Positions 1,564 to 10,821 are shown, counted from the first letter of the stretch. The stretch: 11,651 nucleotides of DNA from a virus (IMGVR_UViG_2657245006_000001), one strand, 5' to 3'. Translations and numbers: made by a program. The notes: generated by a model not told the origin, from the sequence alone.

Positions 1564-1719
1564 TTACTCCTCAGGTTCGTAAGCTGTGAAGACAGCGACC
1601 TCCGTCTGGCCGGTTCGGATTCGTACCTCGCAGAGGTCTTTCCTCGTTACCAGTGCCGTCACTATGACGGTTAAACAGATGACGATCAGGGCGATTAACA
1701 TCGCCTTTTGCTGCTTCAT
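1564..1719 (-). CDS. hok: Hok/Gef-family type I toxin, 51 aa
   Basis: Hand translation gives MKQQKAMLIALIVICLTVIVTALVTRKDLCEVRIRTGQTEVAVFTAYEPEE: one N-terminal transmembrane helix and the conserved Hok periplasmic tail with Cys. AAGGAG lies 9 nt upstream of the ATG at 1719. Not in the ORF track because it is under 60 aa. Recalled as near-identical to HokD (RelF). Confidence 0.85.
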   Translation of the reverse strand: MKQQKAMLIALIVICLTVIVTALVTRKDLCEVRIRTGQTEVAVFTAYEPEE

Positions 1720-1775
1720 AGCCTGCTTCTCCTTGACCTTTCGGTCCGTAAGAGGCTAATCTCTATGTGTCGCAT
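1716..1775 (-). CDS. Mok-like leader ORF (19 aa) whose stop overlaps the hok start codon
   Basis: ATG at 1775..1773 opens MRHIEISLLRTERSRRSRL. Its TGA (1718..1716) overlaps the hok ATG (1719..1717). Resembles the mok/hok coupling arrangement but is much shorter than plasmid R1 mok; Shine-Dalgarno is weak. Confidence 0.3.
   Translation of the reverse strand: MRHIEISLLRTERSRRSRL
1733..1762 (+). promoter_or_regulatory. Candidate Sok-type antisense promoter facing into the hok leader
   Basis: TTGACC (1733-1738), 18-nt spacer, TAATCT (1757-1762) on the plus strand. A transcript starting near 1769 would be antisense to the leader-ORF initiation region (start 1775). A hairpin GCGTC-ttgcag-GACGC (1801-1816) flanked by direct TAATGTTAA repeats lies downstream. 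Confidence 0.3.
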
Positions 1776-1977
1776 AGATATGGCCTCAGATTAATGTTAA
1801 GCGTCTTGCAGGACGCGTAATGTTAACTGGGGCTTTTCTCTATCTGCCTTTTGGTGTTCATGCCTGAGACAGATAGCCTCAAGCACCCGCAGTCATTCTA
1901 CTTAACTAAGATTTCCCCGCAAACCGTTTTTGTCCGGCACAGTAAATATCCAACTAAACCAATGGCGTTCGCTGTAT

Positions 1978-2157: not shown

Positions 2158-2327
2158 TATTCCTCCTACAATCAATGTGCAATTACATTTAAACACACCT
2201 CAATTTGGCCGGACATATAAATATCTAAACCAGAAAAAATCACTTACATAGCGTTACAAACTCTTTAGTCTAAATATTCATCGTAAAACATTCCCCATAC
2301 TTATCAGCCCGTTCTGCGCCAGGTAGC

Positions 2328-2644
2328 TCATTGCCTTATCTGGGAATCTGTAATCAGGTTTCCGGATGCTGGTGGATTTTCGCGTTTTAGTTGTTCATAA
2401 AAGTGCACAGCTTTAACCAGTTCTTCTGATGTAACCGGGACTGGCGGGGCAGTGAATAAGGCCTGAATTTCATAGTTCGGCCTGTCGTTACAATCCTCTT
2501 TTTTCGGTACATATTTCCAGTCACCAGACCACTACTTCCCCTGAAAGTCCGTAACGCCTTTTTTTTCACGTAGCGATATCGCCATGCCACTGTTTTTGCT
2601 TGCCCCGCCGTTTCATGCCCTTCCTGATAATTAACCTCGCTCAT
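2328..2644 (-). pseudogene. Disrupted small gene: reading frame breaks between an A8 and an A6 tract
   Basis: Frame 1 from the ATG at 2644 gives the 85-aa track ORF with odd basic composition. A different frame gives a protein-like tail (...EIQALFTAPPVPVTSEELVKAVHFYEQLKRENPPASGNLITDSQIRQ) running to a TGA at 2328-2330, past the frame-1 stop. That frame contains an in-frame TAG (2532-2534) and an upstream ATG at 2585. The A8 run is plus T8 at 2559-2566. Confidence 0.3.
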
Positions 2645-2817
2645 TCATCGCCCCACTCATCACAATATGCTTCGACCGGAGTTTTTCCTGCTTCATAATC
2701 ATCACGCCATGCTTCAGCATCAGCAGCACTGCCACCACGTAACTCTGCATAGTCCATTAACAGTTCATGCCATTCTTCAAAACTGACGTTGTATTTAGTT
2801 GAACCAAAATCAGCCAT
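2641..2817 (-). CDS. Small acidic protein, 58 aa
   Basis: Hand translation gives MADFGSTKYNVSFEEWHELLMDYAELRGGSAADAEAWRDDYEAGKTPVEAYCDEWGDE. Its ATG overlaps the stop of the upstream 60-aa gene by 8 nt (ATGGCTGA), and its TGA overlaps the next ATG (ATGA). Not in the ORF track because it is under 60 aa. Confidence 0.5.
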   Translation of the reverse strand: MADFGSTKYNVSFEEWHELLMDYAELRGGSAADAEAWRDDYEAGKTPVEAYCDEWGDE

Positions 2818-2992
2818 TTTGTTCTTCCTCTTCGTCTTTTATTTCGTGATATGAGTAATTGCAGTAGTTAAAGAAAATATCTTTTGCTTCGTCATGTATT
2901 TCATCAGGCGTCGCATCATCATCCACTTCGAATTCATCCTCGAAATCTCCACCGGCTATTCCCGTTTCAATAATTATTTTAAACTTTCGCAT
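2810..2992 (-). CDS. Small highly acidic protein, 60 aa
   Basis: ATG at 2992..2990; product MRKFKIIIETGIAGGDFEDEFEVDDDATPDEIHDEAKDIFFNYCNYSYHEIKDEEEEQNG with a very acidic C-terminal half. Preceded on the mRNA by GGAGG, then a hairpin, then 7 nt. Confidence 0.55.
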   Translation of the reverse strand: MRKFKIIIETGIAGGDFEDEFEVDDDATPDEIHDEAKDIFFNYCNYSYHEIKDEEEEQNG

Positions 2993-2999
2993 TTAACTA

Positions 3000-3015
3000 C
3001 CGCCCTTTCGGGCGG
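3000..3015 (-). promoter_or_regulatory. GNRA-tetraloop hairpin between the Shine-Dalgarno and start codon of the 60-aa gene
   Basis: Minus-strand RNA reads GGAGG (3020..3016), then CCGCCC-GAAA-GGGCGG (3015..3000), then UAGUUAA, then AUG (2992). The loop is GAAA only on the minus-strand transcript (UUUC on the other strand). No U-tract follows, so it is not a terminator. Confidence 0.4.
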
Positions 3016-3085
3016 CCTCCTGATGTTCTGAGGGTGCAGAAATCCCTCCGGTTAAGGATTAAATTTTTAACAGAGCTAAATTTAA

Positions 3086-3442
3086 TTATTCAGTTCTGGA
3101 TTTTGTCGCCCTGCGTATCCGCGCTTTCGCGTTACGCTCAATCTGAATTAGCTTTTCTATATTTTTTCGCCTTTCCCGCTCCTCCTGACGCAAGAGCCTT
3201 ACATCATCTGCCAGTCTGGTTTCTCTTTTCGCCACAGAGAGCATCCAGTCAAATGGCTCCACAACTGCACCGCAGATTTTACAGCGGACCTGACGCTCTT
3301 TTTCGTCAACCCGGACAGAGGCGTGATGACAATATGGTCTTTCCGATGGCTCATAAAGAAAATTAACCTGATTACGAGGGTCATCCTCTTTTACCGGAAA
3401 TAAAACGATATTGCTTAACTCATCCTCTGGTTTTATTTCCAT
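3086..3442 (-). CDS. Hypothetical protein, 118 aa, Cys/His cluster and basic coiled-coil-like C-terminus
   Basis: Preferred start is the ATG at 3442..3440 with AGGAG 6 nt upstream (MEIKPEDELSN...). The track ORF extends to a GTG at 3499 directly after the upstream stop, a possible alternative. Motif YCHH...RCKICG, then an RE/K-rich tail. Confidence 0.55.
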   Translation of the reverse strand: MEIKPEDELSNIVLFPVKEDDPRNQVNFLYEPSERPYCHHASVRVDEKERQVRCKICGAVVEPFDWMLSVAKRETRLADDVRLLRQEERERRKNIEKLIQIERNAKARIRRATKSRTE

Positions 3443-3499
3443 GCTCCTCTCCTTTGATGCGAATGCCAGCGGTAATTGAAGCCTGATAGCTAATTTCAC

Positions 3500-3922
3500 T
3501 CACAGTACCGCCTCCTGAAAATTACCCTGATAGAAAGCCAGTACACGCTGCATAGCTTCACTCTTCCGGCACTCGCGACAGATTATGTTTAGGCGACTGT
3601 CGTAGCGACGTATTTCTCCGTCAGGTGATGACCAGATAAGGTCCGGATCAACCACAGCAGGTTTCTTCACCTTTGCCCTCGAGAGTTTTTTGCGGGCGTT
3701 TTGCCAGTCCTTACGCGCCTGTTCAGAGGGGAATAACCCGTAGCCGGAGTTGTATACATCGCCGCTGGCAACCAGCTCTCTTGCGAGAACGCTCATCAGA
3801 TATCTTGTCGCACCTGTCTTGACTTCCAGTTGCCGTAACGTCTCACGCCCACTCTGGCGTACGAGTTCAACAACCTGCCCTTTAATTTTTTCTCGCTCTT
3901 CTTGTGTAAAAACTTTTGCCAC
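3500..3922 (-). CDS. Hypothetical protein, 140 aa, putative helix-turn-helix
   Basis: GTG start at 3922..3920 with AGGAGG 4 nt upstream; TGA at 3502..3500. Contains an HTH-like stretch (TLRQLEVKTGATRYLMSVLARELV). Sits directly downstream of the replication initiator. Confidence 0.6.
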   Translation of the reverse strand: MAKVFTQEEREKIKGQVVELVRQSGRETLRQLEVKTGATRYLMSVLARELVASGDVYNSGYGLFPSEQARKDWQNARKKLSRAKVKKPAVVDPDLIWSSPDGEIRRYDSRLNIICRECRKSEAMQRVLAFYQGNFQEAVL

Positions 3923-7313: not shown

Positions 7314-7668
7314 TAGCTAACCAACGAAGCTAAGGTTGGTAATTAAGGAGTTCTCCACGGGTGAGGTGGAGTGCGTGCGCCGGACACGGGTGAGCATCCG
7401 GCACTGACAGTTTACTGAAAGGATATTTCCCTGAAAAGTCAGACCATAACGCGAAAGCGCACGGCGAGGTAGCTGGTTCATAGATAGCCTGTCGTTAAAT
7501 TTTCGTCGACCGTGCGCTTCCGGTTGTGGCAACCCGCGAAATGGTGCGGCGGTAAGTATGGCGGGGTTATTTCTTCCCCGTTGAGGACACCGGGTTGTCA
7601 GGTTGACCATACGCTTAAGTGACAACCCCGCTGCAACGCCCTCTGTTATCAATTTTCTGGTGACGTTT
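7314..7668 (+). other. GC-rich structured non-coding block with no ORF (candidate structured RNA, regulatory element or gene remnant)
   Basis: All three plus frames are full of stops; the only minus ORF (7317..7652) starts at a non-ATG codon and is Arg-rich. Perfect stems: 7455-7464 with 7510-7519 (10 bp), 7592-7600 with 7620-7628 (9 bp), 7379-7384 with 7397-7402, 7320-7325 with 7335-7340. CACGGGTGAG repeated at 7356 and 7385. A sampled line hand-counts to about 60% GC. Confidence 0.3.
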
Positions 7669-7711
7669 GGCGGTATCAGTTTTACTCCGTGACTGCTCTG
7701 CCGCCCTTTTT
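7669..7711 (+). terminator. Candidate intrinsic terminator at the end of the structured block
   Basis: GGCGG (7669-7673) pairs with CCGCC (7701-7705); an imperfect inner stem extends the hairpin; T-run at 7707-7711 follows. A U-tract exists only for the plus strand. Confidence 0.4.
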
Positions 7712-7880: not shown

Positions 7881-8069
7881 ATGAAAACGTTATTACCAAA
7901 CGTTAATACGTCTGAAGGTTGTTTTGAAATTGGTGTCACTATCAGTAACCCAGTATTTACTGAAGATGCCATTAACAAGAGAAAACAAGAACGGGAGCTA
8001 TTAAATAAAATATGCATTGTTTCAATGCTGGCTCGTTTACGTCTGATGCCAAAAGGATGTGCACAATGA
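7881..8069 (+). CDS. Small hypothetical protein, 62 aa
   Basis: ATG at 7881 with GAGGA 7 nt upstream; its stop overlaps the next ATG (ATGA at 8066-8069). Product MKTLLPNVNTSEGCFEIGVTISNPVFTEDAINKRKQERELLNKICIVSMLARLRLMPKGCAQ. Confidence 0.5.
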   Translation: MKTLLPNVNTSEGCFEIGVTISNPVFTEDAINKRKQERELLNKICIVSMLARLRLMPKGCAQ

Positions 8070-8257
8070 ATTCAGCATTTGTGCTTGTTCTGACAGTTTT
8101 TCTTGTTTCCGGAGAGCCAGTTGATATTGCAGTCAGTGTTCACAGGACAATGCAGGAGTGTATGACTGCAGCAACCGAACAGAAAATTCCCGGTAACTGT
8201 TACCCGGTCGATAAAGTTATTCACCAGGATAATATCGAAATCCCGGCAGGTCTTTAA
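8066..8257 (+). CDS. Small protein, 63 aa, with N-terminal signal peptide or membrane anchor
   Basis: ATG at 8066, coupled to the upstream gene. Product MNSAFVLVLTVFLVSGEPVDIAVSVHRTMQECMTAATEQKIPGNCYPVDKVIHQDNIEIPAGL; hydrophobic N-terminus, three Cys in the soluble part. Confidence 0.5.
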   Translation: MNSAFVLVLTVFLVSGEPVDIAVSVHRTMQECMTAATEQKIPGNCYPVDKVIHQDNIEIPAGL

Positions 8258-8349
8258 AACAGTTCCGTAATAAATATCCGGTTTCATTCTTATATGCCAG
8301 CAATGGCAGGGATTTGTTCATCCTTAAATCTGTCATGAGGTTAAAACAA

Positions 8350-10821
8350 ATGAGTAAAGTCTTTATTTGCGCCGCTATTCCTGACGAACTGGCAACAAGG
8401 GAAGAAGGCGCTGTGGCTGTAGCCACAGCCATTGAAGCTGGCGACGAACGCCGTGCTCGAGCAAAATTTCACTGGCAATTCCTGGAACATTATCCGGCTG
8501 CTCAGGACTGCGCTTATAAATTTATTGTCTGCGAGGATAAACCTGGCATACCCCGCCCTGCCCTCGATTCATGGGATGCTGAATATATGCAGGAAAACCG
8601 CTGGGATGAGGAGTCTGCTTCTTTTGTCCCGGTTGAGACTGAATCCGATCCGATGAACGTCACTTTTGACAAGCTGGCCCCTGAAGTACAGAACGCTGTC
8701 ATGGTTAAGTTCGACACATGTGAAAACATCACCGTTGATATGGTTATTAGCGCACAGGAATTGTTGCAGGAAGACATGGCAACATTCGACGGACATATCG
8801 TTGAAGCGTTGATGAAAATGCCAGAAGTTAACGCCATGTATCCGGAGCTTAAGTTGCACGCCATTGGGTGGGTTAAGCATAAATGTATTCCTGGTGCTAA
8901 ATGGCCCGAAATTCAGGCAGAGATGCGCATCTGGAAAAAACGTCGCGAAGGTGAACGCAAGGAAACCGGAAAATACACGTCTGTTGTTGATCTCGCCCGC
9001 GCCAGAGCCAATCAACAGTACACTGAAAATTCAACAGGAAAAATCAGCCCGGTCATTGCTGCCATTCATCGCGAATACAAGCAGACATGGAAAACACTGG
9101 ATGACGAACTGGCCTACGCTCTCTGGCCTGGTGATGTGGATGCCGGAAACATTGACGGCAGCATCCATCGCTGGGCAAAAAATGAAGTTATCGACAACGA
9201 CCGCGAAGACTGGAAGCGTATCTCGGCATCAATGCGCAAACAGCCTGATGCCCTTCGCTACGACCGCCAAACTATTTTTGGCCTTGTCCGTGAGCGTCCG
9301 ATCGACATTCACAAAGATCCCGTAGCACTGAACAAATATATCTGCGAATACCTGACGACAAAGGGCGTGTTTGAGAATGAAGAAACAGACCTGGGCACTG
9401 TTGATGTTCTCCAGTCATCAGAAACACAAACTGATGCAGTGGAAACTGAGGTATCTGATATCCCAAAAAATGAAACCGCGCCGGAAGCTGAACCATCTGT
9501 AGAGCGTGAGGGGCCGTTCTATTTCCTCTTCGCAGATAAGGACGGAGAAAAATACGGTCGCGCAAACAAACTTTCTGGTCTGGATAAGGCACTGGCTGCT
9601 GGCGCCACTGAAATCACAAAAGAAGAATATTTTGCCCGAAAAAATGGCACATACACGGGCTTACCGCAAAATGTAGATACCGCTGAAGATTCAGAACAAC
9701 CAGAGCCGATAAAAGTTACCGCTGACGAAGTAAACAAAATTATGCAGGCAGCCAATATCATCCAGCCTGACGCCGATAAGTTGCTTGCTGCATCACGTGG
9801 TGAATTTGTTGAAGGGATTAGTGACCCGAATGATCCGAAATGGGTTAAGGGGATCCAGACCCGCGATTCTGTGAACCAGAACCAGCATGAATCGGAACGG
9901 AACTACCAAAAAGCGGAACAAAACAGCCCAAATGCGTTACAAAACGAGCCAGAAACGAAACAGCCTGAATCAGTGGCGCAACAGGAAGTGGAAAAAGTCT
10001 GCACCGCCTGCGGTCAGACCGGCGGCGGCAACTGCCCTGATTGTGGCGCGGTAATGGGCGACGCAACATACCAGGAAACATTCGATGAAGAGTATCAGAT
10101 TGAAGTTCAGGAAGATGATCCGGAGGAAATGGAAGGCGCTGAACATCCACACAAGGAGAACACTGGCGGCAATCAGCATCACGATAGCGATAATGAAACT
10201 GGCGAGACGGCAGATCACTCAATTAAGGTGAACGGTCATCAAGAAATCACATCCACCAGCAGGACGTGTGACCATCTAATGATCGACCTTGAAACCATGG
10301 GAAAAAATCCTGATGCCCCGATCATCTCAATAGGTGCAATATTTTTCGATCCGCAAACCGGAGATATGGGACCGGAATTTAGTAAGACTATCGATCTGGA
10401 AACTGCTGGCGGAGTCATTGATCGGGACACCATTAAATGGTGGCTTAAGCAATCACGCGAAGCGCAATCTGCCATTATGACCGATGAAATCCCGTTAGAT
10501 GATGCACTGTTACAATTGTGGGAATTTATCGACGAAAACTCCGGTGAATTTTTTGTTCAGGTCTGGGGAAATGGAGCCAACTTCGACAACACGATTTTGC
10601 GCCGTTCATACGAACGGCAGGGGATCCCCTGCCCGTGGCGTTACTACAACGATCGCGATGTACGCACAATCGTTGAGCTGGGGAAAGCCATAGACTTCGA
10701 TGCCAGAACGGCTATTCCATTCGAAGGTGAGCGCCATAATGCACTTGATGACGCCCGTTACCAGGCAAAATACGTTTCAGTTATCTGGCAAAAACTGATC
10801 CCGAGTCAGGCTGATTCTTAA
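8350..10821 (+). CDS. Large early-left protein, about 823 aa: long N-terminal region of unknown function, acidic linker, C4 zinc ribbon, C-terminal DEDDh 3'-5' exonuclease domain
   Basis: Preferred ATG at 8350 with GAGG upstream (the track ORF starts at a TTG at 8314); TAA at 10819-10821. C-terminal roughly 190 aa (from about 10264) carries DEDDh motifs: MIDLET, WGNGANFD, HNALDDA. Zinc ribbon CTACGQTGGGNCPDCG near 10000-10046. Possibly related to proteins annotated as exodeoxyribonuclease VIII in prophages (recalled, unverified). Confidence 0.8.
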   Translation: MSKVFICAAIPDELATREEGAVAVATAIEAGDERRARAKFHWQFLEHYPAAQDCAYKFIVCEDKPGIPRPALDSWDAEYMQENRWDEESASFVPVETESDPMNVTFDKLAPEVQNAVMVKFDTCENITVDMVISAQELLQEDMATFDGHIVEALMKMPEVNAMYPELKLHAIGWVKHKCIPGAKWPEIQAEMRIWKKRREGERKETGKYTSVVDLARARANQQYTENSTGKISPVIAAIHREYKQTWKTLDDELAYALWPGDVDAGNIDGSIHRWAKNEVIDNDREDWKRISASMRKQPDALRYDRQTIFGLVRERPIDIHKDPVALNKYICEYLTTKGVFENEETDLGTVDVLQSSETQTDAVETEVSDIPKNETAPEAEPSVEREGPFYFLFADKDGEKYGRANKLSGLDKALAAGATEITKEEYFARKNGTYTGLPQNVDTAEDSEQPEPIKVTADEVNKIMQAANIIQPDADKLLAASRGEFVEGISDPNDPKWVKGIQTRDSVNQNQHESERNYQKAEQNSPNALQNEPETKQPESVAQQEVEKVCTACGQTGGGNCPDCGAVMGDATYQETFDEEYQIEVQEDDPEEMEGAEHPHKENTGGNQHHDSDNETGETADHSIKVNGHQEITSTSRTCDHLMIDLETMGKNPDAPIISIGAIFFDPQTGDMGPEFSKTIDLETAGGVIDRDTIKWWLKQSREAQSAIMTDEIPLDDALLQLWEFIDENSGEFFVQVWGNGANFDNTILRRSYERQGIPCPWRYYNDRDVRTIVELGKAIDFDARTAIPFEGERHNALDDARYQAKYVSVIWQKLIPSQADS

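Follow-up and report, generated by a model that had tools for sequence, protein, structure and literature searches.

How can translation begin at a gene whose Shine-Dalgarno (SD) sequence lies as far as 23 nucleotides (nt) from the start codon? This question is raised by a locus of the viral sequence IMGVR_UViG_2657245006_000001, whose whole stretch of 11,651 nt was analysed and is referred to here as the window. Two small genes coding for strongly acidic proteins, gene 1 and gene 2, lie on its minus strand behind an SD sequence and a hairpin. A preliminary description of this DNA had reported the two proteins, of 60 and 58 amino acids (aa), the 8-nt overlap ATGGCTGA between their genes, and a start region composed of GGAGG, a 16-nt hairpin with a GAAA loop, 7 nt and the AUG; all these minus-strand features were found as described. 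The elements on which the question depends are the following:

3016-3021, minus strand: SD sequence AGGAGG, forming a duplex of -10.3 kcal/mol with the 3' end of the 16S rRNA
3000-3015, minus strand: hairpin CCGCCC-GAAA-GGGCGG, 16 nt, with 6 G-C pairs and a GNRA tetraloop (from sequence and folding)
2993-2999, minus strand: A/U-rich spacer UAGUUAA, 7 nt, with an in-frame UAA abutting the AUG (from sequence)
2990-2992, minus strand: AUG of gene 1 (from sequence)
2810-2992, minus strand: gene 1 (open reading frame (ORF) A), 60 aa, Pfam DUF7167 / PHROG 1997
2641-2817, minus strand: gene 2 (ORF B), 58 aa, PHROG 519, no Pfam family

The distance between the SD sequence and the AUG is 23 nt in the unfolded transcript and 7 nt when the hairpin is skipped. 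The hairpin folds with -12.4 kcal/mol, or with -14.4 kcal/mol when the closing G3016.U2999 pair is counted (16-18 nt, 6-7 base pairs), and the ensemble computed for the 126-nt leader gives it a pairing probability of ~1. For the leader of 46 nt a z-score of -2.66 was obtained, with 5 of 200 shuffled sequences folding equally well, and the 22-nt string made of the SD sequence and the hairpin occurs once in the window versus 0 expected. The spacer UAGUUAA contains no SD sequence. The sole alternative candidate, GGGCGGU, is found in the 3' arm, where it would pair with the anti-SD at -6.7 kcal/mol and is locked inside the stem. At the sequence level, the leader therefore shows four hallmarks of split ribosome binding sites, namely an SD far from the AUG, a hairpin that is stable and lies wholly between the two, a restored spacing and the lack of any alternative SD. 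Gene 1 is probably translated from such a site, in which the strong AGGAGG, 23 nt from the AUG, would be brought to an effective spacing of ~7 nt by the stable GAAA hairpin of 6-7 base pairs, and the hairpin may enhance initiation.

The element formed by AGGAGG and the hairpin (hereafter, the cassette) is not restricted to this locus. It was found in 2651 of the 5426 complete Escherichia coli genomes, where it occupies 4879 places, with a maximum of 9 in one genome, and all of these places are in unannotated intergenic DNA; the K-12 Rac prophage does not carry it. The genes that follow were studied in the 209 instances present in the retrieved loci, where the cassette precedes at least seven unrelated gene families. 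The distance from the end of the stem to the start codon was observed to be:

DUF7167: 7 nt
DUF4014: 6 nt
DUF551/Ead-type protein: 9 nt
43-aa ORF: 8 nt
196-aa ORF: 9 nt
P2-type small terminase: 10 nt (one contig, L134)
Q antiterminator (Phage_antitermQ; loci L121, L116, L110 and L151): 11 nt

The start codon is always placed 6-11 nt behind the stem. All the spacers are rich in A and U, and in six of the seven families they contain no SD sequence, the Q gene being the only one with its own GGAG. Since the cassette is also found before the Q antiterminator and the small terminase, it extends beyond the small accessory ORFs. In O157:H7 strains it likewise stands ahead of a DUF4014 gene. Concerning its limits, in several loci unrelated sequence takes the place of the upstream segment as far as TCAGGAGG, and because the sharing can end right at this point, the conserved unit is of about 26 nt. 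These data suggest that the SD sequence and the hairpin form a portable cassette of ~26 nt at mosaic junctions, which would supply a ribosome binding site to whichever gene is set 6-11 nt downstream by recombination.

Genes that are found both with and without the cassette are informative in this respect. Six of the 80 loci selected by DUF4014 lack the cassette, and the gene is preceded instead by AAGGAGAGTGAT-ATG or GGGAGTGAT-ATG. Likewise, the distant DUF7167 genes of Klebsiella, Yersinia and Citrobacter have no hairpin and show GGAGG, GGGAG or GGGGGA at 3-7 nt from the AUG. Therefore, in both DUF4014 and DUF7167 a normal SD is present where the cassette is absent, and none where the cassette is present. 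The variation of the cassette itself was counted in 180 instances from the protein-selected loci. The GGAGG core is retained in 179 of them. The only changes in the stem are from C to T and fall in the 5' arm (9 instances, with G.U pairs preserved in each), no variation at all occurs in the GNRA loop or in the 3' arm, and AGGAGG always directly abuts the stem. The preliminary description had proposed a start site like those of some phage T4 genes, and this proposal gains comparative support from the seven or more families, the 6-11 nt spacing, the SD swaps and a geometry within the T4 range, all of them read from sequence.

The same conservation could have another origin. The hairpin might lie outside the ribosome binding site and act as a junction linker giving homology for the shuffling of lambdoid modules, or as a stabiliser of the messenger RNA; gene 1 would then be translated without an SD from its A/U-rich start, or weakly from GGGCGGU as the stem breathes. 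This possibility agrees with the location of the cassette exactly at mosaic breakpoints, with unrelated sequence on both sides, with the presence of a GGAG belonging to the Q gene, and with the near-identity of the copies and the deletion alleles that are described below. Nevertheless, it does not account for the six families whose 6-10 nt spacers have no SD and whose start codon falls in a narrow window after the stem, nor for the canonical SDs in the cassette-less versions of the same genes, nor for the fact that AGGAGG always adjoins the stem. Moreover, GGGCGGU is weak and buried in the -14.4 kcal/mol stem. A role restricted to recombination or messenger stability is thus considered unlikely.

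It should be noted that several points weigh against a split ribosome binding site. No compensatory double substitutions were found in the stem among the 180 instances, and a scan of viral contigs for cassettes with a different central base pair gave 0 results. The copies are near-identical and show no covariation, and therefore their conservation could reflect a recent spread; a conserved junction of 26 nt could also persist simply as a recombination substrate. In addition, gene 1 is still intact in three loci where a 14-nt deletion has taken away AGGAGG together with some of the 5' arm, and the A/U-rich region around the AUG makes an SD-independent initiation conceivable. As for the proteins, structure searches with both AlphaFold models gave no informative match, known DNA mimics included, and any function attributed to them is entirely conjectural. 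Taking all this into account, we regard the complete explanation (an accessory module with a split ribosome binding site, a portable cassette and a pseudogene as its third ORF) as rather probable.

The hairpin recurs in identical form beside the start codons of numerous unrelated genes, several times within a genome, and this could also be expected from an operator. An RNA-binding regulator, either a repressor or an activator, would then exert a joint control on all the cassette genes, up to 9 per genome, and the strict invariance of the GNRA loop and the 3' arm could be attributed to its binding. However, the analysis turned up no protein that might bind it, C-GAAA-G tetraloops closing G-C stems are stable hairpins of a generic kind, and recent spread would explain the invariance equally well. 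This option seems very improbable. A broader proposal would be that the cassette is a shared cis-regulatory operator, responding to one RNA-binding factor or working as a temperature- or ribosome-dependent switch, that co-regulates a "regulon" of accessory genes across co-resident lambdoid prophages and that, separately or additionally, one of the acidic proteins is a DNA mimic or anti-defence inhibitor with a new fold. We consider this proposal quite improbable.

Transcription signals were also considered, since the element is a G-C rich stem-loop located between the replication genes and Q, the region where lambda has the terminators tR2-tR4. It could be an intrinsic terminator of the nin type, like lambda tR2, or an antitermination site similar to nut/boxB. 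The first option was discarded because no terminator-like site was found in 2300-3600 (0 sites) and the tail of the hairpin, UAGUUAAAU, has no U-tract; in fact, a U-tract is missing on either strand. Regarding the second one, the upstream leader GCTCTgtTAAAAATTtAA resembles the boxA and spacer of lambda nutL. In lambda-type nut sites, boxA is ~8 nt upstream of the boxB hairpin, near an early promoter, and acts together with the N protein. Here, the boxA-like string is ~55 nt from the hairpin, unlike nut sites, and the leftward operon contains no recognisable N-like gene. The resemblance was checked against the real lambda sequence, and this option was rejected because the boxA-like stretch is not conserved among the other leader variants and is absent from the other cassette contexts. 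A role in transcription therefore deserves hardly any credence. The resemblance of the leader at 3057-3077 (minus strand), GCTCTGTTAAAAATTTAA, to lambda nutL boxA plus spacer (CGCTCTTAAAAATTAA) is probably a matter of chance or a decayed relic. The leader had no match in Rfam at gathering or permissive thresholds.

The part of the leader located upstream of the split site comprises:

3022-3085, minus strand: remainder of the 93-nt intergenic leader, outside the conserved cassette
3030-3048, minus strand: second, weaker hairpin (from folding)

The pairing of this second hairpin is broken by substitutions in other loci. When the full leader is folded, the minimum-free-energy structure pairs a UCCU located upstream (3054-3058) with the AGGA of the SD sequence (3017-3021), and the SD is unpaired with a probability of only 0.36-0.85. 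According to this folding model, the UCCU-AGGA pairing could partially sequester the SD. The UCCU segment is missing from the cassette copies that have other upstream sequence.

Which proteins are encoded behind this start region? No other protein of the locus approaches the acidity of the products of gene 1 and gene 2, with an aspartate and glutamate content of 33% and 28%, respectively, while the other 24 annotated locus proteins have 18% or less. The gene 1 protein has an isoelectric point (pI) of 4.05 and a net charge of -15 (20 aspartate and glutamate versus 5 lysine and arginine residues), and the gene 2 protein has a pI of 4.05 and a net charge of -12. Acidity is also a property of the families, whose median net charge is -13.5 for gene 1 (44 members) and -10 for gene 2 (37 members). 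It had been stated that neither protein matches a recognisable family; the profile searches corrected this statement, since gene 1 belongs to DUF7167/PHROG 1997 and gene 2 to PHROG 519.

Gene 1 matches the Pfam family DUF7167 (PF23768) with an E-value of 7.9e-15 and 55.1 bits (cut-off 24.4) along model positions 1-60 of 60, and PHROG 1997 with an E-value of 9e-31. The profile search found homologues in Klebsiella, Citrobacter and Yersinia, together with a branch of 62-69 aa from Firmicute-type phage contigs, and the motif FEV(D/E)DDAT-x-EEI-xx-EA is common to all of them. Gene 1 shares the size, the acidity and the FEVDDDAT...EEI...EA motif of DUF7167 and is a typical member of it, with no difference. 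Its AlphaFold model (predicted local distance difference test, pLDDT, of 86.3) shows residues 2-8 and 17-23 forming a beta-hairpin, which is followed by a helix (29-43) and an acidic tail. The literature search found no paper mentioning DUF7167, PF23768, either of the WP accessions or the hairpin sequence.

Some alleles carry UAGUGAA in place of the spacer UAGUUAA (2993-2999), and this T-to-G change removes the in-frame stop ahead of the AUG of gene 1. In these stop-less alleles, gene callers extend DUF7167 through the hairpin and the SD sequence, giving proteins of 84-93 aa (e.g. 87 aa). The N-extended DUF7167 database entries (P0002, P0003, P0006 and P0009) are probably annotation artefacts, caused by the lack of the stop in the UAGUGAA variant.

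Gene 2 aligns to PHROG 519 with an E-value of 4.5e-23 at positions 76-137 of the 143-position profile, that is, the C-terminal half; the longer members of PHROG 519, unlike gene 2, carry a different N-terminal domain. An exhaustive HMMER search with gene 2 found 65 cluster representatives at E <= 1e-3, mostly of 48-65 aa, and a Pfam scan of 37 members of the family gave zero matches. The residues F13, W16, W37, Y41, G44 and P47 are conserved in the family, and the AlphaFold model (pLDDT 88.7) contains three helices. In the representative library, matches to proteins of 855-6207 aa also appeared. They correspond to Listeria-Bacteroides repeats and the helicase HA domain and were rejected as homology, being repeat-domain motif noise. 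PHROG 519 contains 261 sequences and has no function assigned, and the naming of its Kuttervirus members as candidate anti-CRISPR proteins comes solely from a machine-learning predictor (PMC9409062). In the literature searched, PHROG 519 appears in this work only, as that prediction.

The last 24 residues of gene 2 (EAWRDDYEAGK.PVEAYCDEWGDE) are also found at the end of a longer protein, acidic as well and different in its N-terminal part, in phage phiSTEC1575-Stx2k (OQ243220, locus L086, 1240-1576). The deposited coding sequence of this protein is apparently in the wrong frame, and the junction motif ATGGCTGA is present at this locus as well.

The two genes and the ORF that follows them are tightly packed:

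2810-2817, minus strand: stop/start overlap ATGGCTGA of gene 1 and gene 2, 8 nt (from sequence)
2641-2644, minus strand: overlap ATGA of gene 2 and the third ORF (from sequence)
2387-2644, minus strand: third ORF, 85 aa, basic, frameshifted remnant of a protein of ~105-171 aa

The -8 and -4 overlaps that link gene 1, gene 2 and the third ORF are kept in 82 of the 84 loci that have gene 1. A weak GAGGA SD precedes the ATGGCTGA overlap (SD duplex of -6.0 kcal/mol). Gene 2 may be read across this overlap by termination-reinitiation or from its own weak SD, and this arrangement suggests translational coupling between both genes.

The overlap of gene 2 with the next ORF by ATGA had been noted previously and stands; the start that it contains, which had been taken as that of the next gene, belongs to a frameshifted pseudogene. 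RefSeq flags the third ORF as "frameshifted; internal stop". In the alignment it has a run of eight A (2559-2566) where the intact copies have six, as well as internal deletions, and intact versions of 105-171 aa are present in other loci. The third ORF is therefore a pseudogene. The same frameshifted allele recurs in many loci, and the DUF4014 copies found behind the cassette are also often broken at an A-run.

Are gene 1 and gene 2 partners? The DUF7167 genes of Klebsiella, Citrobacter, Yersinia and the Firmicute-type phage are followed by unrelated genes that are not of the gene 2 type, and the gene 2-type genes of Enterobacter are located behind Ead/Ea22 genes where a DUF7167 gene is absent. 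An obligate pair was thus rejected by the contexts of the distant homologues, in which each gene occurs without the other. The idea of a conserved pair holds within the E. coli-type modules and not outside them, where the distant homologues occur singly. Judging from these gene contexts, the two genes share a module as neighbours and are not obligate partners. A natural deletion was found in locus L117 (IMG/VR contig 651053022_000007), where the first four codons of gene 1 are fused to gene 2 (MRKFRKNKMADFGSTKY...) and gene 2 is placed directly behind the cassette.

With respect to function, it has been suggested that these proteins could be DNA mimics or inhibitors of host defence or repair, and this would be compatible with the split ribosome binding site. 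T7 Ocr, phi29 p56, PBS2 Ugi and lambda Gam are small, early-expressed and very acidic DNA mimics (pI ~4), and phi29 p56 has 56 aa. The proteins described here are similar to them in being small and early, with a pI of about 4 and a high density of carboxylates, and their size of ~60 aa is no obstacle given p56. The net charges of -15 and -12 in some 60 residues, the acidity throughout both families, the position in an early operon among variable accessory genes (Ead/Ea22, DUF551 and DUF4014) and the machine-learning prediction for the Kuttervirus members point in the same direction. On the other hand, an acidic composition is by itself unspecific, nothing experimental or genomic was found that ties the proteins to a defence system, and no sequence or fold similarity to the four known mimics was detected. 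The profile search and structure prediction that had been proposed to reveal a DNA-mimic character gave confident models with no similarity to known mimics. Searches of the PDB with the single sequences and the family profiles of both proteins returned nothing meaningful, NCBIfam and PADLOC gave no matches, and no catalytic motif was recognisable in either protein. A mimic or anti-defence function of one or both proteins is therefore doubtful, and it should be taken as a prior drawn from charge and context, not as a finding.

The acidic proteins would most likely act stoichiometrically, by attaching to a basic surface of some host or phage protein. Each exact protein sequence is present on at least 1000 contigs, and both proteins are ordinary representatives of prophage families that are uncharacterised. 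It would be reasonable to include them in phage-host interaction screens, although they are not singled out from many similar prophage ORFs.

The DNA of the window is that of an E. coli lambdoid prophage, Qin/Rac-like in type, and near-identical DNA is found in phage vB_EcoS-640R1 and in strain FDAARGOS_536. In the annotated twin loci the gene order is cI, dicC/cro, ydaT/cII, O (replisome organiser), DUF977, a zinc-ribbon protein of 119-137 aa, the two small genes, the pseudogene, hokD, DUF968, rusA and Q. Because of this order, the gene pair can be assigned to the rightward early operon, 3' of the replication genes and at the position of the lambda nin region. In the Stx2a phages and ArgO145, the same pair is located in the leftward arm, beside Ead/Ea22-type genes. 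Its occurrence in either the rightward operon or the leftward arm identifies the pair as an accessory module that is mobile, and which in the window consists of two genes located behind the replication genes and ahead of hok/sok, rusA and Q. Other features of the window are:

1717-1888, minus strand: sok antisense RNA (Rfam RF01794, 106.7 bits)
1564-1719, minus strand: hokD-type toxin ORF, just downstream of the acidic-gene module
7655-7706, plus strand: DicF small RNA (Rfam RF00039, 76.7 bits)
8012-8257, plus strand: apparent dicB gene (the twin phage has an annotated dicB at the corresponding position)
8314-10821: exonuclease VIII-like ORF of 835 aa, after the putative dicB

The leftward operon of the window is of the Qin dicB type.

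Finally, the start region of gene 1 can be compared with known systems. The split ribosome binding sites of T4 genes 38 and 25 were reportedly described by Nivinskas et al. in 1999 and by Malys and Nivinskas in 2009. In these genes, a hairpin shortens the SD-AUG distance, 22 nt becoming 5 nt in gene 38 and 27 nt becoming 11 nt in gene 25, and mutagenesis and probing showed that mutations that destabilise the hairpin lower translation (PMC3014915). As in the T4 genes, the SD of gene 1 is too distant, a stable hairpin lies wholly between it and the AUG, a working distance is restored (7 nt here and 6-11 nt across the cassette contexts) and no other SD is in range. In contrast to them, this site belongs to a temperate lambdoid prophage and not to a T-even phage, it is predicted from sequence, and it is part of a mobile cassette that precedes at least seven unrelated genes in about half of the complete E. 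coli genomes, while each T4 site serves one gene.

In the literature searched, T4 genes 38 and 25 were the only natural sites with the SD-hairpin-AUG order. If our interpretation is true, this would be the third case, the first in temperate phages and the first portable one, with ~4900 copies in complete E. coli genomes before at least seven unrelated genes. It would have a bearing on gene-start prediction, as DUF7167 is mis-extended in some alleles, on the way in which mosaic phage modules stay expressible after recombination, and on the design of structured synthetic ribosome binding sites.

The term "split ribosome binding site" is also applied to the leader of E. coli thrS, where the hairpin is upstream of the SD, between a single-stranded standby region and the SD/AUG, and serves as the operator for ThrRS (PMC3936740). 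In both cases the ribosome would accommodate a folded hairpin inside its binding region; the difference is that the thrS hairpin is located 5' of the SD, whereas the one described here is between the SD and the AUG. Concerning the module, it resembles the lambdoid accessory (nin/ea) genes, which are small ORFs packed with ATGA-type overlaps, shuffled as modules and located after the replication genes or beside xis/int. Unlike the usual lambdoid mosaicism at gene boundaries, the junction in this case is a defined 26-nt unit that apparently also supplies the ribosome binding site.

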